The notes beneath the pieces are model-generated. The model did not search any database. It saw only the letters and a program-made list of their open reading frames with translations, and was not told where the DNA came from. Positions 4,506 to 50,371 of a stretch of 57,637 nucleotides of DNA are shown here, piece after piece. Numbering within the stretch: position 1 is the stretch's first letter; each line of letters begins with the position of its first letter. The DNA is from an uncultured Candidatus Saccharibacteria bacterium (GTDB lineage Bacteria; Patescibacteriota; Minisyncoccia; Phycocordibacterales; UBA918): positions 14,465 through 72,101 of the forward strand of contig CAYXYJ010000007.1 of assembly GCA_964469295.1 (NCBI GenBank), given 5' to 3'. Made by a program: the position numbers and the translations under genes.

Positions 4506-4589
4506 GATATTTTAGTATGCCATATTTTTGCCCCAAAATTAAGATTTTGCCTGTGAGTCAGTTTGAATTGTGATGATGATAGGAAGGTG

Positions 4590-4648
4590 GCCGTCGCGGC
4601 TAAGAAAATCCCCCTCGCAGCGAGGGGGATTTTCTTAGCCGCGACGGC
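4590..4648. repeat. Perfect 29-bp-arm palindrome overlapping the rpsU stop
   Basis: GCCGTCGCGGCTAAGAAAATCCCCCTCGC-a-reverse complement. Confidence 0.95.
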
Positions 4649-4883
4649 TACGAGTTCGTTCTTGTACCTTACCAAGTTTCAAGAGAGTTTCGTAGGTTTC
4701 TTTCTTGATGAGCTTTTTAAGGCGAGCGGTTTTTTGCACGTTGCGACTTTTGACGCGAGTGCGATATCGACCGCTACGAACTTTGTTCATTATTCCGGCA
4801 CCTTGGACACGCTTTGTAAAGCGACGAATGACATTCGCACTGCTTTCATTGGTGTTTTTAGTGACTGCTACATTTGTTGCCAT
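4635..4883 (-). CDS. rpsU: 30S ribosomal protein bS21 (CPR-type)
   Basis: V.V.KN.NESSANVIRRFTKRVQ.AGI pattern; small basic protein; start MATNV. Confidence 0.75.
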   Translation of the reverse strand: MATNVAVTKNTNESSANVIRRFTKRVQGAGIMNKVRSGRYRTRVKSRNVQKTARLKKLIKKETYETLLKLGKVQERTRSRRG

Positions 4884-20262: not shown

Positions 20263-20347
20263 TGGTGCGTGAGAGAGGACTTGAACCTCCACGGATTACT
20301 CCACTAGTTCCTAAGACTAGCGCGGCTACCAATTACGCCACTCACGC
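20263..20347 (-). tRNA. tRNA-Leu(TAG)
   Basis: Cloverleaf with long variable arm, loop CTTAGGA, encoded CCA. Confidence 0.95.
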
Positions 20348-20522
20348 AGTGTCTGTGAGTGTAGCATAAAATAGCGAGGAGGGAAATGTGCGGCGATTAT
20401 CGTTTGATAGTGGTGGTTTTTTGTATTCTTTCCGGCAGTACTTCATTCGTCAATAATGGTACCAAAATGGATATACTGCTCTTGAATTTTTTGTATAATT
20501 CTTGTACACTCGTCGCACAGAT

Positions 20523-20595
20523 GCCCTCTTAGCTCAGTTGGTAGAGCAGCTCCCTCTTAAGGAGACGGTCCAAGGTTCGAGCCCTTGAGGGGGCA
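20523..20595 (+). tRNA. tRNA-Lys(CTT)
   Basis: Cloverleaf, anticodon loop CTCTTAA, GTTCGAG T-loop; CCA not encoded. Confidence 0.93.
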
Positions 20596-20676
20596 CAGAC
20601 GCAAAACGAAATCACTCACTTTTTAAAGTGAGTGATTTCGTTTTAGCACCTGATTAGTATCAGGTGCGGCGTCTGT

Positions 20677-20788
20677 GCCGGCCGCAGCGATGTTTTCTTT
20701 TTATCTAAAATGAAAACCGCGAGGCGGGGTCGCAGGTACTTAGATTTTTATAAACGAAGTGAAATAAAAAGCTTAGTAACCTGTGACC
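20677..20788 (+). repeat. Structured dispersed element, subfamily B (tRNA-Lys trailer)
   Basis: Homologous to the reverse complement of 1369-1482; loop AAACGAAGTGAA at 20752-20763. Confidence 0.8.
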
Positions 20789-20809
20789 ACTAAATATCGT
20801 AAAGGACTT

Positions 20810-20930
20810 GGTCACTCTCGTGGCTTAATTATTTCACTTTGTTCATAATTGAGCTCACTCGTGCGGCCTCGACCGTTTCGGTCCTAAAGGGGACCCCGAA
20901 ACAGTCTTTCAAGTCCTGCCCCGGGCTACA
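20810..20930 (-). repeat. Structured dispersed element, subfamily A (tRNA-Leu(TAA) trailer)
   Basis: Colinear with 29150-29270; loop at 20833-20844; anti-tRNA segment at 20908-20926. Confidence 0.85.
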
Positions 20931-20976
20931 AAACAATAGCTTCACCATGCATTCGCATAGTGAAGCTTTGTTGTTG

Positions 20977-21060
20977 TGCCCGGGGCGGGACTTGAACCCG
21001 CACGACCTTGCGGTCACAAAATTTTAAGTCTTGCGTGGCTACCGATTACACCACCCGGGC
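20977..21060 (-). tRNA. tRNA-Leu(TAA)
   Basis: Cloverleaf with long variable arm, loop CTTAAAA. Confidence 0.95.
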
Positions 21061-28936: not shown

Positions 28937-29149
28937 GGTACCTAGTATAGCAGAATATAGTGGAGATAACGGGCGGCCCTACGGGCCGCTCGTATCAATA
29001 TAAGAAAACCGTCTGACCAATAAAAGTTGGCTCGTTCGTACTTCACTGTTCGAATCCCTCTAGTCAGTGACATTTAGTCACGTACTCCCGGCGCACGCAA
29101 TAAAAATCGCCTAGGCAAATGTCTGAGTAATTTTTTATATTTGAGATTC

Positions 29150-29270
29150 GGTCACTCTCGCGGTTAAATTAGTTCACTTCGTTCCTAATTTAACTCGCTC
29201 GTGCGACCTCACCAGTCTCGGCCCTAAAGGGGACCCCGAGACTGGTTTTCGAATCCCTCCGGCGCTACAA
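29150..29270 (-). repeat. Structured dispersed element, subfamily A (original tRNA-Tyr trailer)
   Basis: Colinear with 20810-20930; loop at 29173-29184; anti-tRNA-Tyr segment at 29248-29265. Confidence 0.85.
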
Positions 29271-29413
29271 ACAGCAACGACCCAAATGCGAATGCATTTG
29301 GGTCGGCTGATCTGTGCGCCGAAATGGAAGCGGTTCGACAAATGTGTGTAGTGTAAATAAGCCTGAAATCGTGAAAATCTTGTGAATCTACCGCAAAATA
29401 GTAGGATGTCTAT

Positions 29414-29857
29414 ATGTCTGAATATAGACTCTCGCAAGAAATAGTGGCTTTATCTGAATCAGATAAGTGGGACGAAGCTCGACTTGAGTGGGAGCTTTTT
29501 CGAATGTTTGATCAAGATGATCTTGATACTTGCTTGTGTGGTCATTATCCCATAAAAGAAATATGTGTCCTGAGAAACAAAAAGAACGATAACCAGGCCA
29601 TCGTGGGTAACTGCTGTGTTCAGAAGTTTATGGGTATTTCTTCAGACAAATTGTTTGCTGCCCTTAAAAGGGTGAAAAAGGACATTGGCAAACCATTTAA
29701 CGCTGATGTTATAGAGTTTTCGTTTGAGCGTGGATATATTAGTGATTGGGAAAAGGGTTTTTATCTTGATACCTGGCGAAAGAGGGACTTGAGTGAGAAA
29801 CAGACAAAAGAAAGAGTTAAAATCAATAAGAAGATTCTGCTTAAACTATCAAAGTAA
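29414..29857 (+). CDS. Hypothetical Cys-rich (putative Zn-binding) protein
   Basis: CLCGH...C...VGNCC; ends 4 nt before the OLD nuclease start. Confidence 0.8.
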   Translation: MSEYRLSQEIVALSESDKWDEARLEWELFRMFDQDDLDTCLCGHYPIKEICVLRNKKNDNQAIVGNCCVQKFMGISSDKLFAALKRVKKDIGKPFNADVIEFSFERGYISDWEKGFYLDTWRKRDLSEKQTKERVKINKKILLKLSK

Positions 29858-29861
29858 ATTT

Positions 29862-31961
29862 ATGTTTTTATCAGTCGTAAAATTATGGAATTTCAGACAG
29901 TTTGGTTCAGTAGGATCTGAAAAAAACAGAAAACCTGACTTGCATACAACATTTGGTCCAGGGCTTAACTTGTTTGTGGGAGAGAATGATTCAGGTAAGA
30001 CGACTGTTGTTGACGCGATAAATTACATCGTTATTCCGCAGAGCTACGAAAACATGCGAATCAGGCATGATGATTTTTTTGGTGATGAAGATTGGCTAAG
30101 AATTGAATGTGTCTTTACTGGATTCACTTCAAATCAGGCTAAAAACTTCATCGAGTACTTAACAATTGATGATAAAAAAGTTTCAGAAATTGCAGCTGAA
30201 GAATTAACTGAGGATGAGCTAATAGAGAAACAGATTGCAAATCTAGAGATGACACTATTTTTGGAAGCTGAAAAAAATAGTGGAGATAAGCCTTTGTGGC
30301 ATAGGGTCAAAGTAAAAGTTGGAGATGAGGTGGTCGACTTAAGTGGTGATGTTCGATTTCAGTTTCTCAGATCAATGTATCTCAAGCCTTTAAGAGATGC
30401 AGAGAGCGAACTCACTGCTAAGCCAAGGTCAAGATTGTCACAGATTCTTCTTAAACATGATTCTTTTGAAGAGGCAAAGGGAGAAAAACACCCTCTCACC
30501 AAGGTATTTTCTGTGGCGAATACTGACATCAGAGGCTTCTTCGAAGGCGAATTTGCAGACCCTGAATCGGTACTGGATATTTTGAGTAGATTATTTATCT
30601 TGTCATCGAAAAAGGTTGAGCAAGGTCTGAATGCTGCAGATGAGGCAGAGTTAAGTTCTTTGCTTGATGAATACCATGATATTAAAACCAATAAAAATGT
30701 CTCTGGTAAAAGAGTAAGTGAACAAATTGGAGAGCACCTAAACAGGTTTCTTTCAAAGAAAAAGAGTAAACAGGCAAAGTTTGATATTTCTGATCAGCAA
30801 TTGTCACAGGTTTTGCAAAAACTTAATCTGGCTCTTGATGAGAAGCGCTCTGGCTTAGGTGCATTAAATATTTTGTTTATGAGTGCTGAACTGCTTCTTT
30901 TGGCAAGAGAGAAGTCAGCAAGTTTACAGTTGGGCATTATTGAGGAGGCTGAGGCACATCTTCATACACAAGCACAGATGAGAGTTCTTGATTACCTACA
31001 ATCGTTAGCTGACAAGAGTGCAGATTCTATGCAGCTATTCGTTACAACACACAGCACTCATATTGCTTCAAAGGTTAAGCTCAAAAACTTAATCTTGTTT
31101 AGAAATGGTAAGGCTTTCAGTATGGCGCCCAACCACACGAAACTTGAACCTCAAGATTACTCATTTCTGGAAAGATTCCTTGACGCAACAAAAGCAAATT
31201 TGTTTTTTGCTGAGGGAGTTTTAATTGTTGAGGGAGATGCTGAGAATATTTTGCTTCCCAGTCTGGCAAAGTTGATTGGCAGAGATCTTGTTTCTTACGG
31301 AGTTTCAGTTGTAAATGTGGGACATTCAGGACTCACACGATTTTCTGATATTTTCATTCGTAAAGAAGGTGAAAGTGAGCTTGATGTGCCTGTCGCAAAT
31401 ATTAAGGATCTTGATGTAAATTACAAAGATTATCTTGTAGAAGGAAAGTTAACGCTTCCTGAAAATATTGCAGAACTGGAGTTATCAAATTGGGAGAAAA
31501 AGGTAGAAGGAGAAGATCAGTGTGTGAAAAATTTTATTTCACCTCACAAAACTCTTGAATACGACTTGGCTCTAGATCAAGAGTTGAGAACTTTGTTTGC
31601 TAGGGCTGTATTTAGGATGATTCATTCTAGGCGCAAACAAGGTGAAGGGATTTTTATACAGGATGAAGCTTCGTTAAAAGCTGCAGATGAAGAGGCGGAT
31701 AATTTCATAAAAGAATCAGTGGAGGCCGGTAAAACTGACCAGCAAACAGCTTACGATTTATATAGGAAATGTAAGAAACACAAGACTCTAACAGCTCAAT
31801 TTTTTGCTCAGATATTAGAGGAATTCACACCTTCTGAACACCTCGATCCTAAGGGGCAGTTAATGTGTCGTGCAGTACAGGCTTCATTGGTCGCTAAGTT
31901 AAAACGTGGGAATGCTGGTTATTTGTTGAATGCTATTGAATATGTGACTGAACCTTTATAA
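29862..31961 (+). CDS. gajA: OLD-family ABC-ATPase/TOPRIM nuclease (Gabija GajA-like)
   Basis: GENDSGKT Walker A, IIEEAEAHLH Walker B, VTTHS, TOPRIM IVEGDAE and DLD. Confidence 0.85.
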   Translation: MFLSVVKLWNFRQFGSVGSEKNRKPDLHTTFGPGLNLFVGENDSGKTTVVDAINYIVIPQSYENMRIRHDDFFGDEDWLRIECVFTGFTSNQAKNFIEYLTIDDKKVSEIAAEELTEDELIEKQIANLEMTLFLEAEKNSGDKPLWHRVKVKVGDEVVDLSGDVRFQFLRSMYLKPLRDAESELTAKPRSRLSQILLKHDSFEEAKGEKHPLTKVFSVANTDIRGFFEGEFADPESVLDILSRLFILSSKKVEQGLNAADEAELSSLLDEYHDIKTNKNVSGKRVSEQIGEHLNRFLSKKKSKQAKFDISDQQLSQVLQKLNLALDEKRSGLGALNILFMSAELLLLAREKSASLQLGIIEEAEAHLHTQAQMRVLDYLQSLADKSADSMQLFVTTHSTHIASKVKLKNLILFRNGKAFSMAPNHTKLEPQDYSFLERFLDATKANLFFAEGVLIVEGDAENILLPSLAKLIGRDLVSYGVSVVNVGHSGLTRFSDIFIRKEGESELDVPVANIKDLDVNYKDYLVEGKLTLPENIAELELSNWEKKVEGEDQCVKNFISPHKTLEYDLALDQELRTLFARAVFRMIHSRRKQGEGIFIQDEASLKAADEEADNFIKESVEAGKTDQQTAYDLYRKCKKHKTLTAQFFAQILEEFTPSEHLDPKGQLMCRAVQASLVAKLKRGNAGYLLNAIEYVTEPL

Positions 31962-31963
31962 AT

Positions 31964-33892
31964 ATGACCAGCGATGAGATTGATATTTTAGAAATTGAAA
32001 AGATTTTACTCCCAGCAGGAGCCAGCTTTAATGATGAGAGACGAAAATTTATATTTGAAAACTCAAAAAATGTTGACCTCATTGCTTGTGCTGGAAGTGG
32101 AAAGACAACAGCTTTGCTTGCAAAATTACTATTGCTTGAACGACAACATAAAGCTAAAGATGGCATATGTGTTCTAACTCATACTAATGTCGCAATAAAC
32201 GAAATCAAAGATAAGATTTCATCTGACTCCATTCTTCTTCAATTCCCTAGCAGTTTCAGTACCATACAACAGTTTGTTGATCGTTTTCTAACTATCCCTG
32301 CATATAGGCATTTAACAGGGCACAACCTTAAGCAAATTGATACTGAAGCAGCCAATAAACGCTTTGTGAACAACCTTTATGCTCTACCTAACTCTACTGA
32401 GAAAACTGCGCTGTTTGGTTATCAAAGTTTTGGAAGAGAATGGGAAGATCGTAAAAAGGTTCTTGAAAGAGGTGTTGAATATATTATTGAAGTGGGGTCC
32501 GGTCATTTTAAATTTACAGGCAATCACAATAACAGACCAATACCTCTGAAAAACCCTAATAGTAATTGCTATAAAGCGACCAAAAAAGCAAAAGATGCAG
32601 TTTTTCTTGAAGGGTACATTACATATGATGAGGCTTATTCGCTCGCTTTTTGGTATTTAGATAAGTTTCCGTTTATTGAAAAGTGTCTTTCGGAAAGATT
32701 CCGTTTTGTGTTTGTTGATGAGATGCAAGATTCGTCAAAAATCCAAATTGATCTGCTTAAAAGAATTTTCAGACATCCTGATAATGTGTTTCAAAGAATT
32801 GGCGATCCAAATCAAACTATCTATGACACAAACAATGATAACTTGTGCGAATGGGAGCCATCAGAAAATCTGCATAACCTGAAAGGGAGTTTGCGACTTT
32901 CTACATCTACCGTTAAGGCTATTTCAGGCATTAGAAATGATTGTACAGAGGAAATAGAGGGGAATGAAAATTTACCTACAATAAATCCTCACATCATTAC
33001 TTTTAAAGAAGGTGAAGAAAATAAAGCTATTCATGAGTACAAGAATTTGCTGATAAAGCATTGGTCCGAATTAGATTACAAGGAAGGTGATCAAATAAAG
33101 ATTGTGGGTTGGACAGGGAAAGACAATGGTGATTTATGTTTGCCTAGGTATAACCCATTATTTTCTAATTCTACTTCAAAGAAATATCTTCCAAATATTG
33201 AGAGCTACAAATCTCAGTTTGAATCACATATCAGAAAGCGGGGGTCATTAAAGGCCGCCAGGTCCTTGATTCTACAAACTGCCACTCAGCTACTATTTGA
33301 GTTGGGAGTAAAAAATGAAAATAAATATTACACCCAAGTAGATGTTGAAGAGAAAATTGAGTCTCACGTGGATTTGAATCGAAGATTATTGAATCTGTCT
33401 GTAAATCTGGCTTATTCAGAAAATGCTTGGGATAGAGTTAATGAATTCATTTCAAACAATGTTTTACCACTGTTTATTCAAGATGAAAAAAGTATTGATC
33501 ATGAAAAGCTTAATGAATTCCTAAACGGTGAATCAGTCGTTTCAATTACATCTGAAGAACCTAATGATGCAGAGGATTTCTTGGTGGTAGATGATTTTGA
33601 CACAAAGATTCCGATTACGACTTCGACCATTCACTCAGTCAAAGGGGAGACTCATAAATCTACCTTGTATGTAGAGACTAAGTACCATAAATATGATTTG
33701 GAACGATTATTAAAGGGTCTCTGTGGAGGTTTGGAAAAAGCAGATAACTTAGACGGAAAGAGAAAGATGATGGGCTATGTTGCTATGTCCAGAGCGTCTC
33801 ACCTACTTTGTTTAGCGGTCCGTGATGTTGTTATTGACCAAGATTTAGAAAAGCAATTACAAGGTATTGGTTGGGAAGTGGTAAGGGCTTAG
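31964..33892 (+). CDS. gajB: UvrD-like helicase (Gabija GajB-like)
   Basis: ACAGSGKT, LTHTN, VDEMQD, IGDPNQTIY, TIHSVKGE, YVAMSRA; 2 nt after the OLD nuclease. Confidence 0.85.
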   Translation: MTSDEIDILEIEKILLPAGASFNDERRKFIFENSKNVDLIACAGSGKTTALLAKLLLLERQHKAKDGICVLTHTNVAINEIKDKISSDSILLQFPSSFSTIQQFVDRFLTIPAYRHLTGHNLKQIDTEAANKRFVNNLYALPNSTEKTALFGYQSFGREWEDRKKVLERGVEYIIEVGSGHFKFTGNHNNRPIPLKNPNSNCYKATKKAKDAVFLEGYITYDEAYSLAFWYLDKFPFIEKCLSERFRFVFVDEMQDSSKIQIDLLKRIFRHPDNVFQRIGDPNQTIYDTNNDNLCEWEPSENLHNLKGSLRLSTSTVKAISGIRNDCTEEIEGNENLPTINPHIITFKEGEENKAIHEYKNLLIKHWSELDYKEGDQIKIVGWTGKDNGDLCLPRYNPLFSNSTSKKYLPNIESYKSQFESHIRKRGSLKAARSLILQTATQLLFELGVKNENKYYTQVDVEEKIESHVDLNRRLLNLSVNLAYSENAWDRVNEFISNNVLPLFIQDEKSIDHEKLNEFLNGESVVSITSEEPNDAEDFLVVDDFDTKIPITTSTIHSVKGETHKSTLYVETKYHKYDLERLLKGLCGGLEKADNLDGKRKMMGYVAMSRASHLLCLAVRDVVIDQDLEKQLQGIGWEVVRA

Positions 33893-33913
33893 ATTTGATA
33901 TATAAATTGTTGC

Positions 33914-34324
33914 ATGAGTAATTTACTTGATTTAATAACTAAAAACTACTGTACGCTTCTTAACGTGCCAACTTCAAAATCTGCCGAAGGGCAGGCTTGG
34001 CAAATAATTGCTAATTTTTGGTCCCAGCTCTGGCCCTACTTGTTAGGATTCCTGGTCGTGGTGGTGTTGGCCGAGTTGCTGACTCGCCATAAAAATGAAT
34101 ATAACTCTGCAAATGGATTTACGCCTCAATTTAATAGATTTGTGGGGAGTGGCACATACATGGGGCTTCAGATTGGTCTATATTTTCTGGTCCATTTAAT
34201 ATTTGGAAACATTGCTTATTGTTTCCCTTGGCCGTATCTAGCTCACATAGTGGTGTTTTCGCTGACATTTTACATTCTGCATTGGATAGGATTTTGGCCT
34301 AAAAAATATAAGAGAAAGTACTAA
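33914..34324 (+). CDS. Hypothetical membrane protein (about 3 TM)
   Basis: Hydrophobic segments; 21 nt after the helicase. Confidence 0.7.
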   Translation: MSNLLDLITKNYCTLLNVPTSKSAEGQAWQIIANFWSQLWPYLLGFLVVVVLAELLTRHKNEYNSANGFTPQFNRFVGSGTYMGLQIGLYFLVHLIFGNIAYCFPWPYLAHIVVFSLTFYILHWIGFWPKKYKRKY

Positions 34325-34397
34325 ATGGTTTTGACCAAAGCATAGGCTTGTGACTACAATAAGTTTGAATCTTTGATTCTTATCAAAAATCAAACTT

Positions 34398-34697
34398 ATG
34401 GCACGAGGAGGCAAAAGACCAGGCGCCGGTCGTAAAAAAGGATTTTCAGCAATCACCGCGGAAGAGAGTCGCAAAGTTATTGCTGATCTTGTAGCTAAAG
34501 ATATTGCTCCAATTACTAAGGCCTTAATTAAAAAAGCAAAACAGGGAGATGTAAAAGCAGCTAGCTTGCTGTTTGATCGTGCGTTTGGAAAGCTTGAGAC
34601 AAAAGCTCAAAAACCATCTTTTTTCTACAATGTAGCTGATGTTCGAGAGCGATATGGATCCGGGGCAATGGCGGAGGAGCGAAAGAAGTTCAGTTAG
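34398..34697 (+). CDS. Small phage-type protein, terminase-small-subunit-like
   Basis: MARGGKRPGAGRKKG N-terminus; KAKQGDVKAASLLFDRAFGK helix. Confidence 0.55.
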   Translation: MARGGKRPGAGRKKGFSAITAEESRKVIADLVAKDIAPITKALIKKAKQGDVKAASLLFDRAFGKLETKAQKPSFFYNVADVRERYGSGAMAEERKKFS

Positions 34698-34709
34698 TCA
34701 TTTTTAAGA

Positions 34710-35243
34710 TTAGAATCCAGTCTTGAGTCCGAGTATATCTTCTCTTAACTTTTTAATGAACATAGCTTCCTTTTCGCGTAGTTCGACTACCAAAAGAGCG
34801 TTCTCTAAATTAAGTTGCTCATCAGAACTATCGCTAAGGTGCTGAGCGAAAGCTGATCCGATGACTGGTTCATTATCGTCATTGAAAATATTGTCGTACT
34901 CTCTGTATCTATCGTTCAGTAAGTCACTAATACTAGATCTTTGCTCAAAGTTATAGCCATTTCTCTTATATGCTGAAAAATACTCCTCATGTACTAAATC
35001 TAGAAACAGATGATTAGTGAGTTTGTCTGTATAAATTGGATTAATTCTTAAGTACCAAAGAAGATATGCCATGGACTCAAATTTAAAGACTTCTTTAAAT
35101 TTGCCACTCCATGGATTTACCTCACTTTCATTTTCGAGTACAACATTGTGAGCAATTAAGGCAAGTTCACTTGATACAACTAATGCTACTTTTCTCAACG
35201 CTCTTTTAAAGCGCTTGAATTTTAAAAATTTAATTATTGACAT
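34710..35243 (-). CDS. Hypothetical protein
   Basis: 177-aa ORF preceded by a structured leader. Confidence 0.7.
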   Translation of the reverse strand: MSIIKFLKFKRFKRALRKVALVVSSELALIAHNVVLENESEVNPWSGKFKEVFKFESMAYLLWYLRINPIYTDKLTNHLFLDLVHEEYFSAYKRNGYNFEQRSSISDLLNDRYREYDNIFNDDNEPVIGSAFAQHLSDSSDEQLNLENALLVVELREKEAMFIKKLREDILGLKTGF

Positions 35244-35249
35244 ACAAAA

Positions 35250-35378
35250 AGCCCGCTACCAGGTAGGACCGAAGTCCATATCTAGAGTTTCCCCCAAATA
35301 GCACAAACAAGTGACCCCTGATAACGGGTTCTTTACTTGTTTGTGACTAACTTATTCGCACCATACCGCCAGCGGGCT
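35250..35378 (-). promoter_or_regulatory. Structured leader RNA / attenuator
   Basis: AGCCCGCT/AGCGGGCT closing helix plus U5 just before the ATG; 11-bp inner helix; cUUCGg hairpin. Confidence 0.65.
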
Positions 35379-35472
35379 GTCGGGTTAGGTGACTATATTG
35401 TGTTTGTAATATTACACTTAGTTTCTTGGTCCGCAAGCGTTACTTTTCACGGAAAAGAGCTAATATAAAATC

Positions 35473-36093
35473 ATGAAGGAGCTGGAGATTGAAGATACAT
35501 GTGGTGTATGTGAGAAAATTCAGAAAATTGCTGAGGGAAGTTCTTCTGGCCAGGTGTTAACTTACCTACTTGAGACAAGCTCCAACACTCGTTTAAAGAA
35601 AGAAAGAGCATGTCTTGAAGAACTCGCAAATGAGTACCATGCTATTACTTTTGTTGGTAGGGCTGAGACGCATCTAAATAAAATAAAATATAAATTCCGA
35701 ATAAACGAGAAGCGATTTCAAAAGCATTTAAACGACGAGTGTAATCCTGAACATTTCCCTAGAAAAATTGGTGACAGAGTTCAGATTATCGCAAGCATGA
35801 GGTGGGGTTTGTTTGTAAAAGGAAGGCCTGAGTACCGATGTAGATTGTCTCCGCGTAGAATGAAATTCATTTTTAACTTAATGTATGGATCTGATGATAT
35901 TCCAACGCGAAATGGTAAGAAAATGTCTACTTCAAACAAAACTAAAGCTGTGAATATTATCAACGACCAATTCATGAGTAGTCTGGGTTTTGATAAGAAG
36001 CTTGTTGAAGGGGATGGGGGTCGTGGTTATTACTTGAATGAGCTAGTTTATATTGTTACTCCAGACCAACAATATTCCACGGAAATGGAATAA
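35473..36093 (+). CDS. Hypothetical protein with possible C-terminal winged-helix DNA-binding domain
   Basis: C-terminal ...AVNIINDQF...LVEGDGGRGYYLN resembles an OmpR-type wing. Confidence 0.6.
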   Translation: MKELEIEDTCGVCEKIQKIAEGSSSGQVLTYLLETSSNTRLKKERACLEELANEYHAITFVGRAETHLNKIKYKFRINEKRFQKHLNDECNPEHFPRKIGDRVQIIASMRWGLFVKGRPEYRCRLSPRRMKFIFNLMYGSDDIPTRNGKKMSTSNKTKAVNIINDQFMSSLGFDKKLVEGDGGRGYYLNELVYIVTPDQQYSTEME

Positions 36094-36116
36094 AATGATA
36101 GTCGAATGATTTATGT

Positions 36117-36216
36117 CAGCTCTGTACTCTCGTAAGTACGGAGCTGGTTTTCGTTAAGACTCGTCACCAGTAAGGACTCTCCAAACCAGCTCCTTGGAGG
36201 GTCCTTACTGGTTTTT
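36117..36216 (+). promoter_or_regulatory. Two-hairpin RNA switch upstream of the rep/integrase gene run
   Basis: 12-bp and 19-bp stems each followed by T-runs; 11-nt cross-complementarity between 36140-36150 and 36183-36193. Confidence 0.65.
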
Positions 36217-36219
36217 ACT

Positions 36220-36378
36220 ATGCAACTTTCTGAACAACACGTTGAAGCGTTCATTGAACTATATAAAAAACATTATGGTGTTGTTCTTGATCGTGAAGTT
36301 GCAGTCGAGAAAGGTATTCAGCTTTGTAGATTAGTAGAACTTGTTGATTTTAGTCAAAGTGAATATGAAGAAGAATAA
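36220..36378 (+). CDS. Unannotated 52-aa protein (MQLSEQHVEAFIELYKKHYGVVLDREVAVEKGIQLCRLVELV...)
   Basis: Open frame ATG 36220 to TAA 36378, overlapping the next ORF; amphipathic helical pattern; below the ORF-track size cut-off. Confidence 0.7.
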   Translation: MQLSEQHVEAFIELYKKHYGVVLDREVAVEKGIQLCRLVELVDFSQSEYEEE

Positions 36379-36679
36379 AAAATTACTTGAAAGTGTTGTG
36401 GAAGTTTTTACCTTTAAAGAAGCGGTGGTTTTGCAATACACAGGTCACTCTCTTAGATCAATTGATAAAAATAATGACATTGATTGTCCGTATATCTATC
36501 GTTTCTTTCTTAGGAGCGACACATTAGCACTGCTTGATGATTTTGGAGAAGGTACGATTATGGTCGAACCGGGTTGTTTTATTGATGCTTTGGGAAACTT
36601 ATTGGAGCAAAAAGAACGCTTTGTGGGAGGGGGTAAGAATAAAAAAGATGACAATAAAGGGCTGGATCAAATTATTTAG
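36365..36679 (+). CDS. Hypothetical protein
   Basis: Overlapping ORF in the island operon. Confidence 0.55.
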   Translation: MKKNKKLLESVVEVFTFKEAVVLQYTGHSLRSIDKNNDIDCPYIYRFFLRSDTLALLDDFGEGTIMVEPGCFIDALGNLLEQKERFVGGGKNKKDDNKGLDQII

Positions 36680-37139
36680 GAGAGAATTTGAATGGTTCAA
36701 GGATCTTTCAAATCCAGAAATAGTGTATTTACTCGCTGCACGAGTCGTTGCAGAGTGGGATAATAAAAAGGAGCAATTTGGGACTTTTGATGCAAGAATC
36801 AAAGAAATGCAGAAGATTCTCGGATGGTCTGATGGTACTATAAGCAGAGTTGGCAAATTGCTTTTGAGCAAGGGTTATTTTCATAAAACTGATGACCATA
36901 GGCGCTGGAGGATAACAAATGCAGAATTATTTTTCTCTAAGGGTGGCAGTAGTAAAAAAGCTGAAAAAATTATTTTAGATACCGAAACTAATCTTCAAAC
37001 ACACGAACTTAATCTTCAGATATCTGAATATTTTCCAGATAAGATTAAGCAAGGAATCAAGGATTTAAAGGATAAAATGAGTGTGTCTGATGGCTCTAAG
37101 AAGAAGAATCAAGAAGATAAAGAAAATACAAATAAGTAA
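36648..37139 (+). CDS. Phage-type replication initiator / HTH protein
   Basis: N-terminal GWIKLFRR resembles the GWIKLHR motif of phage replisome organisers; HTH-like LGWSDGTISRVGKLL..KGY. Confidence 0.6.
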   Translation: MTIKGWIKLFRREFEWFKDLSNPEIVYLLAARVVAEWDNKKEQFGTFDARIKEMQKILGWSDGTISRVGKLLLSKGYFHKTDDHRRWRITNAELFFSKGGSSKKAEKIILDTETNLQTHELNLQISEYFPDKIKQGIKDLKDKMSVSDGSKKKNQEDKENTNK

Positions 37140-37142
37140 AAC

Positions 37143-38981
37143 ATGGACAGATATAAAGCAAGTAAATATTTCCTATACCTAAGACGGTCCCAAGACGCGG
37201 AAGATCGGCAGATGGCATCACTTGAAGACCAGGAGTCTGAGATGGTTGCTGTTGCTGAAAAACTAGGCCTAGAAATTGTTGACGTTATTGAGGAGTCTCA
37301 ATCAGCTAAAAAACCAGGAAGACCAAAATTTAATGACATGATTGCGAGAATCCATGCTGGAGAGGCAGATGGAATTGTTTGCTGGAAAATCAATCGCCTG
37401 GCTCGTAATCCAGTTGATGGTGGTCAGATCTCATGGCTTTTGCAGCAAGGGGTAATTAAACATATTCAAACGTACTCACGTGACTATCAGCCGTCAGACA
37501 ACGTGATTATGATGGCGGTTGAGCTTGGTATGGCGAACCAGTTTGTGAATGACTTGAGTGTCGATGTGAAGCGAGGAATGAGACAGAAGGCTGAACGTGG
37601 TTGGTATCCGCAGAGGTCTCTTCCTCCTGGCTACAAGCACAATAAGGGGTATGAAAAAGGTGAGGTTGAGATTGTGAGCACGAAGGAGCTCTCAATAGTG
37701 AAGAAGCTTTTCGAGGATATGCTGACCGGCAACTATTCTGCTTCGGATATTCAGAGAAAGTGTGGCACGTATGGAATAACCGGAAGGAAGGGGCAGCCAT
37801 TACCGCTTCAAACAGTCTTTAACATTCTCACCAATGAATTTTATTGTGGGTATTACTATTGGAAAGATTCTAATGGAGAAGAGGTAAGACACAAGGGCAA
37901 GCATAAGGCTATTTTGAGCGAGGATGAGTTTAATCGGGTCCAGAGGTTGTTGGGTAAGAAAGGGAGGCCAACACGCGTTAATAAGCTAGATTTTGCGTTT
38001 AGAGGCCCATTGAATTGTGGGGAGTGCGGGTGTGCTGTTACAGCTGAAGAAAAAGTGCGTTGTGTCTGTACTGGCTGCCGCTACAAATTCTCAGCCAAGA
38101 CTAGGACTGATTGTCCTAAGTGTGGTCTAGATCTATCAGAAATGAATGATCCAAAAATATACCGAAATGTCTACTACCACTGTACGAAAAAGAGAAAGGA
38201 CTATAAGTGCACTCAAAGTGTTATTGATGAAACGCAACTCAAGAAACAGGTGTATGGAGAATTAGGCAAAGTTGAGATTGATGAGGATTTCTACAACTGG
38301 GCAGTAGCGGCCCTTAAGCATACTCACGGTGATGAGATGCAGACTCAAGGTGACATCTTGAAGGGTCTTAATGATCGTTCTGTGGCTATTCAAGCACGTA
38401 TTGATAAGTTTGTACTGATGCGTGCAGATGGAGAGATTTCAAGTGATCAGCTTGCTCGTATGACAGCTGATGAAGAGAAAAGCTTAAAAGATATTGAAAA
38501 AGAGCAGAAGCGTCTTCATGCTCGTATGACAGAGTGGTCCGCTACTGCCGACAAGTATCTAACTTTTGCTGATCGGGTCCGCAGAAAATTCAATAAAGCT
38601 TCAAATGAAGAGAAAAGAGAGATGTTGACCATGTTAGGTTCGACACTCGAAATAACTGACAAAAAATTCAGAGTTATAGTCGCGAATGAGCTTTTAGGCT
38701 TCAAAAACGTCTATGTGAAATTGGGTAAGAAATTAGGAAGGTTCGACACTCAAAAAGCCCTTGATATACAAGGACTTTCTGAACAAAAACGCTTAGTTTT
38801 TGATGAACTGTGCGCCGGGAGGGATTCGAACCTTCGTAGGCTGATGCCAGCAGATTTACAGTCTGCCCTCGTTGACCGCTTGAGTACCGACGCAATTATG
38901 TGCATGAGGTGGTCAAACCTCATCTGTGTCGTACAACTTACCACAGATTGCCACTATTTTCAAAGGGGTCTTGTGTGGTAG
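37143..38981 (+). CDS. Large serine recombinase (integrase)
   Basis: YLRRSQ catalytic Ser, SAKKPGRPKF, INRLARN, recombinase domain, Zn-ribbon (CGECGC...YYHC), coiled coil. Confidence 0.96.
   Translation: MDRYKASKYFLYLRRSQDAEDRQMASLEDQESEMVAVAEKLGLEIVDVIEESQSAKKPGRPKFNDMIARIHAGEADGIVCWKINRLARNPVDGGQISWLLQQGVIKHIQTYSRDYQPSDNVIMMAVELGMANQFVNDLSVDVKRGMRQKAERGWYPQRSLPPGYKHNKGYEKGEVEIVSTKELSIVKKLFEDMLTGNYSASDIQRKCGTYGITGRKGQPLPLQTVFNILTNEFYCGYYYWKDSNGEEVRHKGKHKAILSEDEFNRVQRLLGKKGRPTRVNKLDFAFRGPLNCGECGCAVTAEEKVRCVCTGCRYKFSAKTRTDCPKCGLDLSEMNDPKIYRNVYYHCTKKRKDYKCTQSVIDETQLKKQVYGELGKVEIDEDFYNWAVAALKHTHGDEMQTQGDILKGLNDRSVAIQARIDKFVLMRADGEISSDQLARMTADEEKSLKDIEKEQKRLHARMTEWSATADKYLTFADRVRRKFNKASNEEKREMLTMLGSTLEITDKKFRVIVANELLGFKNVYVKLGKKLGRFDTQKALDIQGLSEQKRLVFDELCAGRDSNLRRLMPADLQSALVDRLSTDAIMCMRWSNLICVVQLTTDCHYFQRGLVW
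38811..38893 (-). tRNA. tRNA-Tyr(GTA)
   Basis: Cloverleaf, loop CTGTAAA, long variable arm; lies antisense inside the recombinase ORF tail. Confidence 0.95.
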
Positions 38982-43227: not shown

Positions 43228-43244
43228 AAATACCTACTTTTGCT

Positions 43245-43421
43245 TTGTGCCTCGGGAGGGGGTCGAACATTACATGTTCAGTATAGGTTGTCACCCGTTC
43301 GTTTCCTGTCAGTCACAAACGGGTAGACAACCTTTTCGACCCACGCCACGCTTTTTATTAGAAGCTGCTCCTCCCTCACCACTCCTCACTTTGTTCGTTG
43401 TGCCTCGGGAGGGGGTCGAAC
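43245..43421. repeat. 24-bp direct repeat of the tRNA-Leu(CAA) 3' end enclosing a 129-bp structured spacer
   Basis: TTGTGCCTCGGGAGGGGGTCGAAC at 43245-43268 and 43398-43421. Confidence 0.92.
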
Positions 43422-49400: not shown

Positions 49401-50318
49401 CTAGGTTTTGTCGGTGCTGTCAAATGATGTGTTGGGAGTAGAGTGAGGAGACGGATGATGTAGTGTGGTGTAGGTGCCATTTACTTCCATAATAATTCCT
49501 TCAATTTCTAAACGCATTAATAAAGTGCTCGCTTCGGTAATAGGTAAATTCAGTAATCGAATAAGGGTGTCTCTCGGTTTTGGTTCATTTAGGTGTACAA
49601 GGACTGGTGTGGCATAGTCTGGTATGGAAATAGTGGTGTTAACAGTGTCAATGCGGGGTATAAGTGAAAGAGCGTCAACGATGTCAGTACTGGTGGTGAT
49701 GGGAGTGGCACCAAGCTTTAAAAATTGATGGGTGCCAAATGATGAGGAAGAAAAAATGCTGCCCGGCACCACCAATACTTCGCGATTGTAATCGGTTGCC
49801 AGGCGTGCCGTAATGAGTGTGCCTGATTTTTCACCGGCTTCTATTAGTAAGGTCGCTTGGCACATACCAGCCATGATGCGATTGCGCGCAGGAAATGTCC
49901 AATCGGCAGAGGGTGTCGTTGGTGGTAATTCTGATAATAGACCACCACCGCGGGCGACAATTTTTTCGGCTAACGCATAATGACGGCGCGGGTAGAGGAC
50001 TTTGTCGCCAAGGCCACTGCCGGGGACGGCGAGGGTATAGAGGCCAGCGGCCAGGGCCGCTTCGTGAGCGATACCATCAATACCAATAGCGAGTCCAGAG
50101 ACAATGCCAACGTGATAGGAGGTTAACCCGGCAATCAGATGTTCGGTCACTTGTCGACCATAGGTAGAATATTTGCGTGACCCAACAACCGCCAATAGAG
50201 GAAGATCAGGTGAGGGCATAGTGCCAACTGCCCAGAGCGATTTTGGCGGTTGGGGAATTTCTGCCAACAGTGGAGGGAATTCAGATGGGGATAGAGTGCG
50301 AATCGAAAAAGAACACAT
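49401..50318 (-). CDS. dprA: DNA-processing protein DprA
   Basis: AVVGSR, IVSGLAIGID.IAH, FPARNRIMAG, SGTLITA; C-terminal winged helix. Confidence 0.96.
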   Translation of the reverse strand: MCSFSIRTLSPSEFPPLLAEIPQPPKSLWAVGTMPSPDLPLLAVVGSRKYSTYGRQVTEHLIAGLTSYHVGIVSGLAIGIDGIAHEAALAAGLYTLAVPGSGLGDKVLYPRRHYALAEKIVARGGGLLSELPPTTPSADWTFPARNRIMAGMCQATLLIEAGEKSGTLITARLATDYNREVLVVPGSIFSSSSFGTHQFLKLGATPITTSTDIVDALSLIPRIDTVNTTISIPDYATPVLVHLNEPKPRDTLIRLLNLPITEASTLLMRLEIEGIIMEVNGTYTTLHHPSPHSTPNTSFDSTDKT

Positions 50319-50326
50319 AAACGTAG

Positions 50327-50371
50327 CATAACACAAGCGGGCGGGGCGAAGCCCCGCCCGCTTGTGTTATG
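50327..50371. repeat. 21-bp-arm palindrome with C(GAA)G triloop
   Basis: CATAACACAAGCGGGCGGGGC-GAA-reverse complement. Confidence 0.9.

Follow-up and report, generated by a model that had tools for sequence, protein, structure and literature searches.

A conserved hairpin scaffold carrying a mirror copy of the neighbouring tRNA 3' end: a candidate miniature mobile element in a Paceibacteria-like genome

Mobile DNA at tRNA genes and folded attachment sites

The genes for tRNAs are classic landing sites for mobile DNA, and the known arrangement combines a direct copy of the tRNA end with an integrase that the element encodes. Integron attC sites use extrahelical bases much as the attachment site of the CTX phage uses the asymmetry of its central region. 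That phage carries two oppositely oriented dif-like sites some 90 bp apart, and its active att site is the structure into which they fold when the DNA is single-stranded (PMC3089051). The central regions of the CTX att hairpin are unequal, and both sites stay beside a functional dif after integration (PMC3089051).

The window, the 57,637-nt stretch of DNA analysed here, is chromosomal and holds seven tRNA genes. It codes for a short IF-2, ClpB, FtsZ/FtsA, gyrase, topoisomerase I, RelA/SpoT, DprA and type IV secretion pilins. The nearest homologues of its IF-2, at 80-83% identity, are in Parcubacteria/Paceibacteria metagenome bins, and the host is, judging by its sequence, a CPR bacterium of Paceibacteria-like affinity. 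The DprA gene (49401-50336, minus strand), whose product handles incoming single-stranded DNA, has a loose bearing on the idea of a single-stranded intermediate discussed below. A near-perfect 32-nt inverted repeat (97% complementary, 1-nt loop) lies at 4587-4651 in an intergenic or overlapping-ORF region. The subject of this report is a family, denoted A, with two members in the window, A1 (20803-20976) and A2 (29143-29321), that share a scaffold of two hairpins, P1 and P2.

Among described systems, tRNA-targeting integrative elements and CIMEs resemble A in that it inserts at a tRNA 3' end, has an identity block from the T-loop to the 3' end, brings a trailer and a terminator, and codes for no genes. 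As in CIMEs and tandem accretion, it stacks with the newest element nearest the tRNA, and displaced 3' fragments decay. A differs from these elements in its size of ~180 nt, in having no integrase that was found and a distal direct repeat that is mostly truncated, and in carrying both an inverted copy of the att block with a 1-nt bulge and a covarying scaffold of two hairpins. The likeness to CTX attP(+) and attC lies in inverted, target-like copies tens of bases apart, with a stem that mimics the double-stranded target and an asymmetry (the bulge) on one arm. As with CTX (PMC3089051), the inverted copies of A persist beside a functional target site. The target of A, however, is the end of a tRNA gene instead of dif or attI, and a part for Xer, IntI or a single-stranded intermediate would be hypothetical in its case; A is far smaller than the CTX phage and, unlike integron sites, stands outside any cassette array.

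Two further comparisons concern non-coding units. Guide-RNA systems (IS110 bridge RNA, TnpB omega-RNA, Cas12 crRNA) share with A a scaffold followed by a 16-20 nt target-identical segment, but A has no nearby DEDD recombinase, TnpB, IscB or Cas gene, no IS ends and no covariance-model match. Unlike the IS110 bridge RNA, moreover, A has constant P1 internal loops and two variable segments that pair with each other. REPINs, which are RAYT-mobilised inverted REP doublets, are comparable as ~100-nt non-coding hairpin units that follow genes and contain two inverted ~20-nt sequences. REP sequences are uniform genome-wide and abundant, whereas the arms of A are tRNA-specific and its copies rare.

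Structure of the A elements

A1 begins with a left flank denoted V1 (AGGACTT, 20803-20809, plus strand), which is the reverse complement of tail positions 57-63. The scaffold follows on the same strand, with P1 (20810-20868; GGTC...GGCC, conserved internal loops and the apical loop TTCACTTTGTTC) and P2 (20871-20906; loop CCTAAAGGGGAC), both assigned from the fold and from compensatory changes. The tail (20907-20928, plus strand) reads TTTC-AAGTCCTGCCCCGGGC-T-A and consists of a constant TTTC, a copy of tRNA-Leu(taa) positions 57-72, an extra T (20927) and the discriminator A. A mirror trailer, the hairpin P3 (20938-20967) and the tRNA trailer, together spanning 20929-20976, form the centre of a long palindrome whose second arm is the 3' part (20977-20996) of tRNA-Leu(taa) (20977-21060, minus strand). 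P3 of A1 has an intrinsic-terminator score on the tRNA strand.

A2 has the same layout on the plus strand, with V1 (GAGATTC, 29143-29149), the scaffold (29150-29246; P1 at 29150-29208, P2 at 29211-29246) and the tail TTTC-GAATCCCTCCGGCGC-T-A (29247-29267), in which the copy of tRNA-Tyr 57-72 has one C missing and is followed by the extra T (29266) and the discriminator A. Its last segment (29268-29321) comprises the mirror trailer, P3 (29279-29304), the flank GGCTGATCTG and, from the 3' end of tRNA-Tyr, the first 7 nt. The tRNA-Tyr gene beside which A2 originally lay is at 38811-38893 on the minus strand. The scaffolds of A1 (20810-20906) and A2 (29150-29246) are 79% identical and fold into the same two hairpins.

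A sequence-only reading of the window had noticed that each of these copies carries an antisense copy of the 3' end of its own neighbouring tRNA, and this observation is confirmed, also beyond the window. In A1, TTCAAGTCCTGCCCCGGGC (20908-20926) is the reverse complement of tRNA-Leu(taa) 20978-20996 with a single mismatch, at position 62; in A2, TTCGAATCCCTCCGGCGC (29248-29265) corresponds to tRNA-Tyr positions 54-72 minus one C. After both segments comes T-A-CAAA where the tRNA has A-CA, so that the same extra T is present in A1 and A2. A1 and A2 each have such a tail, an opposite-orientation copy of positions 54-73 of the neighbouring tRNA with an extra T between 72 and 73. The match is specific to the tRNA. 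When each tail was locally aligned with the 3' ends of all seven tRNAs in the window, the best score was 17 for A1, with Leu(taa), and 16 for A2, with Tyr; the next best was 10 in each case. The segment described as variable does vary and does match the neighbour, but its true start is position 57, since TTTC is constant. The tail thus starts at T54 and its variable part at R57, and the extra T falls at 72/73 in four of four copies, which represent three tRNA species.

Tail, P3 and tRNA end together form one hairpin of 88-90 nt, in A1 and in A2 once an intervening island is removed. It is made up of 19 bp with the tRNA end, the bulged T, ~10 bp of discriminator and trailer, and then P3. Its free energy as DNA is -41 to -42.5 kcal/mol (z = -12 to -14), and none of 200 shuffles folded as well. 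The single bulged T occupies the same place in the folds of A1, A2 and a further copy, A4, and, by sequence, in the copy A3. The spacer hairpins that had been pointed out are both there, at 20938-20967 and 29279-29304, although their 4-nt loops are not identical as had been read; on the plus strand they are ATTC in A1 and GAAT in A2, the reverse complements of each other. A single 12-mer makes up the P3 apex in both elements, oriented oppositely in A1 and A2.

Pairings P0, P1, P2 and P3 are all kept in RNAalifold, with 18 compensatory pairs among three copies and 23 among four. The strands of P0 are V1, here the 7-16 nt immediately before GGTCAC, and the tail from positions 57-63 on. V1 covaries with the T-loop variant in all four copies, and in A1 it is either the 5' strand of P0 or the leftover of a displaced tRNA 3' end. 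Identity by descent could be another source of the P0 covariation, both strands being copies of the same T-loop. Counts of G-U and A-C among the pairs of A are balanced and indicate neither the strand nor RNA as opposed to DNA. Across the copies, the scaffold keeps its structure, positions 54 and 57 are fixed boundaries and the bulge does not vary. A is unlike a MITE, which has constant terminal inverted repeats and a target-site duplication of fixed length, in that its inverted flanks (V1 and tail) differ from copy to copy, follow the tRNA and are 7-16 nt long.

Searches for known relatives of A returned little. Rfam gave no match to A at gathering or permissive thresholds (E<=10), only tRNAs and a LOOT RNA elsewhere in the window, and a consensus promoter scan at A gave no site on either strand. 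A phage collection yielded tRNA matches only. Viral contigs scanned for exact words from an A loop, from the C family and from the P3 flank of A returned no matches or chance-level ones, and profile searches confirmed that none was real. The candidate that A is a plus-strand pseudo-tRNA or tRNA-like cloverleaf was rejected; its acceptor 3' strand has no partner and ARAGORN finds nothing. No integrase, Xer-type recombinase, transposase or guide-RNA effector was found in or beside any A copy, no DEDD (RuvC-like) recombinase gene near A1, A2 or A3, and no tnpB/iscB, Cas gene or IS ends near A. The only recombinase within the 57-kb window is a serine recombinase, part of a different island whose attB needs no A.

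That 9.5-kb island (29322-38817, plus strand) lies between A2 and tRNA-Tyr and is not part of A. It is bounded by a 10-bp direct repeat, CTGTGCGCCG (29312-29321 and 38808-38817), sits in the tRNA-Tyr 3' end and puts tRNA-Tyr 9.5 kb from A2. When 29322-38817 is removed, the geometry seen at tRNA-Leu(taa) comes back at tRNA-Tyr, as had been proposed. The island carries a Gabija-like pair (OLD-type ATPase/TOPRIM, 29793-31961; UvrD-like helicase, 31964-33892), several ORFs without Pfam matches and the large serine recombinase. Its LOOT RNA (Rfam RF03000; 35265-35391, minus strand) scores 48.3 bits against a gathering score of 46.4, and its reconstructed attP contains the dyad TTGATGAAC...GTTCGACAA. 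The serine recombinase ORF (37143-38981, plus strand) crosses attR and tRNA-Tyr antisense, so that host DNA supplies its last ~55 codons; in other genomes, homologues at this locus have 565-611 aa, as expected if integration alters the C-terminus.

Serine-recombinase islands hold tRNA-Tyr in the relatives L130-L133 as well as in the window. The possibility that A is a part or half-site of the serine-recombinase island was rejected, given that homologous islands at tRNA-Tyr in four other genomes have no A and that the left half of attB varies by genome. Also ruled out was a single family for the islands beside A2 and A3, whose helicases and neighbouring proteins are not homologous. On the attL side of the L132 island (597-665), a plus-strand tRNA-like 3' end, GGTTCGAACTCCATCCCGACCCCTAC, is convergent with the tRNA-Tyr terminator, and ARAGORN reports no tRNA at that place.

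Insertion sites, further copies and the C family

Orthologous sites in sister genomes bear on how A came to its position. A homology search of L001-L004 with A1 and A2 found only 19-nt tRNA-end matches and no A scaffold. In L002, L003 and L004, tRNA-Leu(taa) is followed by an unrelated terminator and then by a convergent tRNA-Leu(tag), and in L001 by an element of the C type described below. Nor was the A scaffold found in the four further relatives L130-L133; in L131, where the attL of the island was located, a plain terminator follows tRNA-Tyr. Because the orthologous sister sites have no A scaffold, A is an insertion. Outward from tRNA-Tyr, the window has the serine-recombinase island, A2 and an old C remnant that is also in L002 and L004, an order that fits successive integrations with the newest closest to the tRNA.

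The surroundings of A1 have also been rearranged. The segment with tRNA-Leu(tag) and tRNA-Lys is inverted in the window (20263-20596) and L001 relative to L002 (12295-12561) and L004 (12785-13146), and one breakpoint of this inversion is the convergent tRNA-Leu(taa)/Leu(tag) junction, the present site of A1. In L004 (12675-12870), a partial duplicate of tRNA-Leu(tag), its 3' two-thirds, precedes tRNA-Leu(tag), and the convergent tRNA-Leu(taa) and tRNA-Leu(tag) fragment use one perfectly symmetrical bidirectional terminator.

To look for copies outside the window, 185,579 species genomes and the JGI metagenome collection were scanned with exact anchors. A single further locus emerged, in a Saccharibacteria MAG (L008, and again in L010-L012), with the copy A3; a subsequent profile search turned up A4, a fourth and diverged copy, in L010. 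The total recovered is four A copies at three loci, by scans that needed exact anchor words and so missed diverged members. A3 is ~77% identical to A1 and A2, and the flanking DNA is unrelated. The P3 flanks ACAGCAACGACC...GGTCGGCTGATYTGTG are common to A2 and A3, that is, to Paceibacteria and Saccharibacteria copies, and therefore belong to the element and travel with it. These comparisons show A to be mobile between lineages. The two strains L010 and L011 are identical through A3 and diverge right after GGCTGATTGTG, which puts an island junction there, at the position that it has in A2.

The L010 locus is an array. Outward from the tRNA are a terminator, a C-type element, a full sense copy of positions 54-75 and A4, and beyond A4 a 13/16 copy of 57-73, older C pieces and, further out, A3. 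In the tRNA direction, A4 consists of P3, a perfect antisense copy with the extra base, P2 and P1. It thereby mirrors a displaced tRNA 3' fragment perfectly across P3, with the same extra T. The tail-plus-P3 modules of A3 and A4 are 100% identical, and their scaffolds have diverged. The expectation that copies elsewhere would match their neighbours was therefore borne out beyond the window, where the variable segment mirrors the sequence across P3. It follows from the array that A attaches to any copy of 54-73 and that the newest elements are nearest the tRNA. A distal direct repeat is present in A4 as 13/16 of positions 57-73, and in A1, A2 and A3 as only 7, 7 and 11 nt.

The C family has a scaffold unrelated to that of A, a conserved hairpin ending in GCGACAASSTGTACTG plus GTACTG, in an element of 100-160 nt. 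Its copies follow tRNA-Tyr, Leu(caa), Leu(taa), Trp and a Saccharibacteria tRNA, five tRNA species in all, and lie at 43238-43399 in the window, L004 543-725, L002 3541-3710, L010 1-200, L131 12561-12680, L133 15040-15300, and L001 7327-7500 and 7714-7771. The window copy (minus strand) follows tRNA-Leu(caa) and has, from the tRNA outward, a 50-nt spacer, a partial antisense T-loop, the conserved hairpin and a full direct repeat of positions 53-76. C is bounded by clean direct repeats of 18-24 nt that start at 53-56 and end at 74-76. Its antisense piece is specific to each tRNA and is either 8-13 nt or full-length. A ~22-nt hairpin splits the full-length form at the T-stem/acceptor junction, and this form makes with the tRNA end a long palindrome across the terminator (L002, L004, L010 and window 29049-29096). 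The last of these (29049-29096, plus strand) is what remains of an older C-type element; a 24-nt hairpin interrupts its inverted copy of tRNA-Tyr 53-73, the second such copy at this tRNA, and its arrangement is also found in L002 and L004. A and C follow one plan, with a sense copy, a hairpin, an antisense copy that is modified and a conserved scaffold. The fixed asymmetry is a different one in each family.

A third arrangement, denoted B, follows tRNA-Lys (20592-20679, plus strand). The pairing of 20592-20602 with 20669-20679 that had been described there is exact. It closes B with an 11-bp stem, of which the final 4 nt of the tRNA are part and inside which two hairpins lie. The two enclosed hairpins make B in the window a three-way junction. 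The terminator palindrome of tRNA-Lys takes in the last 4 tRNA nt (GGCA...TGCC) both in the window (20597-20679) and in L001 (7990-8054).

A proposed attachment-site copy and rival explanations

There is, in our estimate, an even chance that A is a small (about 175-190 nt), protein-less, non-autonomous and horizontally mobile element integrated at tRNA 3' ends or displaced copies of them, and that the matched segment is its attachment-site copy. The sequence-only reading had seen an address in the combination of a common scaffold with a neighbour-matched segment. The match is indeed beyond chance, tRNA-specific and recurrent in independent copies, and the idea of an address holds for an attachment-site copy, given the insertion, the arrays and the displaced-fragment target; an RNA guide is unsupported. 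In the tRNA direction, the proposed unit would consist of tRNA positions 54-73, a short trailer, P3, the mirror trailer, the antisense copy 73-54 with the extra base, P2, P1 and a short sense remnant from position 57. With the copy inverted, the tRNA end, P3 and the copy would fold as a ~90-nt hairpin with one bulged T. Integration would proceed by site-specific recombination in or near the T-loop, with a recombinase that is probably encoded elsewhere and acts in trans. By analogy with CTX phage attP(+) and integron attC, the form seen by the enzyme may be the folded hairpin as single-stranded DNA, and on this analogy a folded-hairpin attachment site would be favoured for A.

Several features fit an attachment-site copy. 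The start in the T-loop, the new trailer and terminator and the order of accretion agree with site-specific integration, and the variable repeat boundaries would suit T-loop integration blocks rather than fixed target-site duplications. A length of 120-190 nt without genes agrees with non-autonomous attachment-site modules that are mobilised in trans. The C family, at five tRNAs and with the same logic, is a parallel that supports this reading of A. The objections are nonetheless substantial. No recombinase is linked to A, and in the sequences covered neither an excised form nor a transcript came to light, nor a population with both empty and filled sites. A crossover in the T-loop predicts a distal direct repeat, yet A1-A3 have 7-11 nt and only A4 has a near-full one. 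Both arms, moreover, are correct for three tRNAs with the same 1-nt bulge, which the model does not account for.

Two rival readings bear on the same features. The matched segment might be a guide, with A as a plus-strand small RNA gene convergent with the tRNA, whose 16-20 nt 3' guide sends a trans-encoded effector (an RNA-guided recombinase, transposase, nuclease or repressor; compare bridge RNA, omega-RNA and crRNA) to the tRNA gene end. Two covarying hairpins, the constant TTTC, a target-identical segment from 57 and then a hairpin would suit such a gene, as would a scaffold that stays constant while targets differ between copies. This is quite unlikely, however. No recombinase or other effector gene lies beside any copy, there is no Rfam match and no promoter-like site was found; the terminator score of P3 is on the tRNA strand only, and A2 and A3 have no U-run on the plus strand. 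The bridge-RNA-like logic that had been suggested also fails on the variable segments, since V1 and the tail are complementary to each other and not to adjacent target halves, unlike bridge-RNA guide pairs. Identity to an essential single-copy tRNA gene would be self-targeting, and the mirrored trailer and array structure are left unaccounted for. Alternatively, the mirror copy could have arisen in place, through synthesis that folds back or switches template at the terminator (quasi-palindrome extension) or by palindrome gene conversion, with selection holding the tRNA arm. The palindrome is unbroken from P3 via the trailer into the tRNA, the A3 and A4 tail-plus-P3 modules are 100% identical despite their diverged scaffolds, the A1/A2 P3 apex 12-mer is flipped as spacer flipping between inverted repeats predicts, and the terminator palindromes after tRNA-Lys also extend 4 nt into the tRNA. 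Local copying is still unlikely, in that templating would not give the same extra T in four of four copies at three tRNAs, would not end at T54 each time, and would not give P3 flanks common to Paceibacteria and Saccharibacteria. Most tRNAs in these loci have ordinary terminators that stop short of the tRNA, which is weak evidence on terminator reach only, the palindrome survey being ungapped and poor on bulged palindromes.

Functions at the tRNA itself fare worse. As a cis-acting tRNA 3' trailer, A would have its antisense segment pair with the T arm and the acceptor 3' strand and so modulate termination, 3' processing (by RNase Z or exonucleases) or folding. For the tRNA strand P3 resembles a terminator, and any transcript that ran past it would include the antisense segment; the bulge sits precisely between positions 72 and 73, beside the RNase Z site; and the C-type antisense with its T-stem/acceptor-junction hairpin is kept at tRNA-Tyr in three diverged genomes. 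A trailer function is nevertheless very improbable. Most relatives with the same tRNAs have no A, which is therefore not needed for maturation; A4 adjoins a displaced fragment and not a tRNA, an island now parts A2 and A3 from the tRNA, and the conserved P1 and P2 are given no role. The inverted copy might also be a decoy attB, on the host or the element side, that diverts tRNA-targeting integrases or aborts secondary integrations, and tRNA-Tyr and its neighbours are indeed integration hot spots in the clade, with mini-elements built up at several tRNAs. A decoy is extremely unlikely, given that islands entered next to A2 and A3 anyway, that the serine-recombinase attB has a left half that varies between genomes and does not involve the inverted copy, and that neither a conserved scaffold nor a fixed bulge would be needed. 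The fold-back, trailer and decoy-attB options explain less than an attachment-site copy does, because the fixed extra T, the conserved scaffold and the presence in two CPR classes are unaccounted for.

Beyond an attachment-site copy in A, a wider proposal is tentative and rather unlikely, namely that A and C together are a new class of ~120-190 nt non-autonomous CPR elements that would integrate at tRNA genes by means of either a folded single-stranded hairpin that imitates the double-stranded end of the target gene or the scaffold and matched segment as an RNA guide for a recombinase encoded elsewhere. If the hairpin defines the class, the bulge in A or the side hairpin in C would set the choice of strand.

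The elements described here run to only 120-190 nt, lack genes and pair a sense copy of a tRNA end with a mirror copy. The asymmetry is specific to each family, and the elements recur at several tRNAs in bacteria of two CPR classes. Should the hairpin be the active form, recombination on folded DNA, known so far for dif and attI, would reach tRNA targets and the smallest known mobile units, and would account for the build-up of islands in gene-poor CPR genomes. A guide role for the matched segment would make it a programmable system of a new kind. Either way, if true, these elements would amount to a retargetable address system for tRNA genes. If neither applies, the arrays still mark islands and att sites in CPR metagenome bins.
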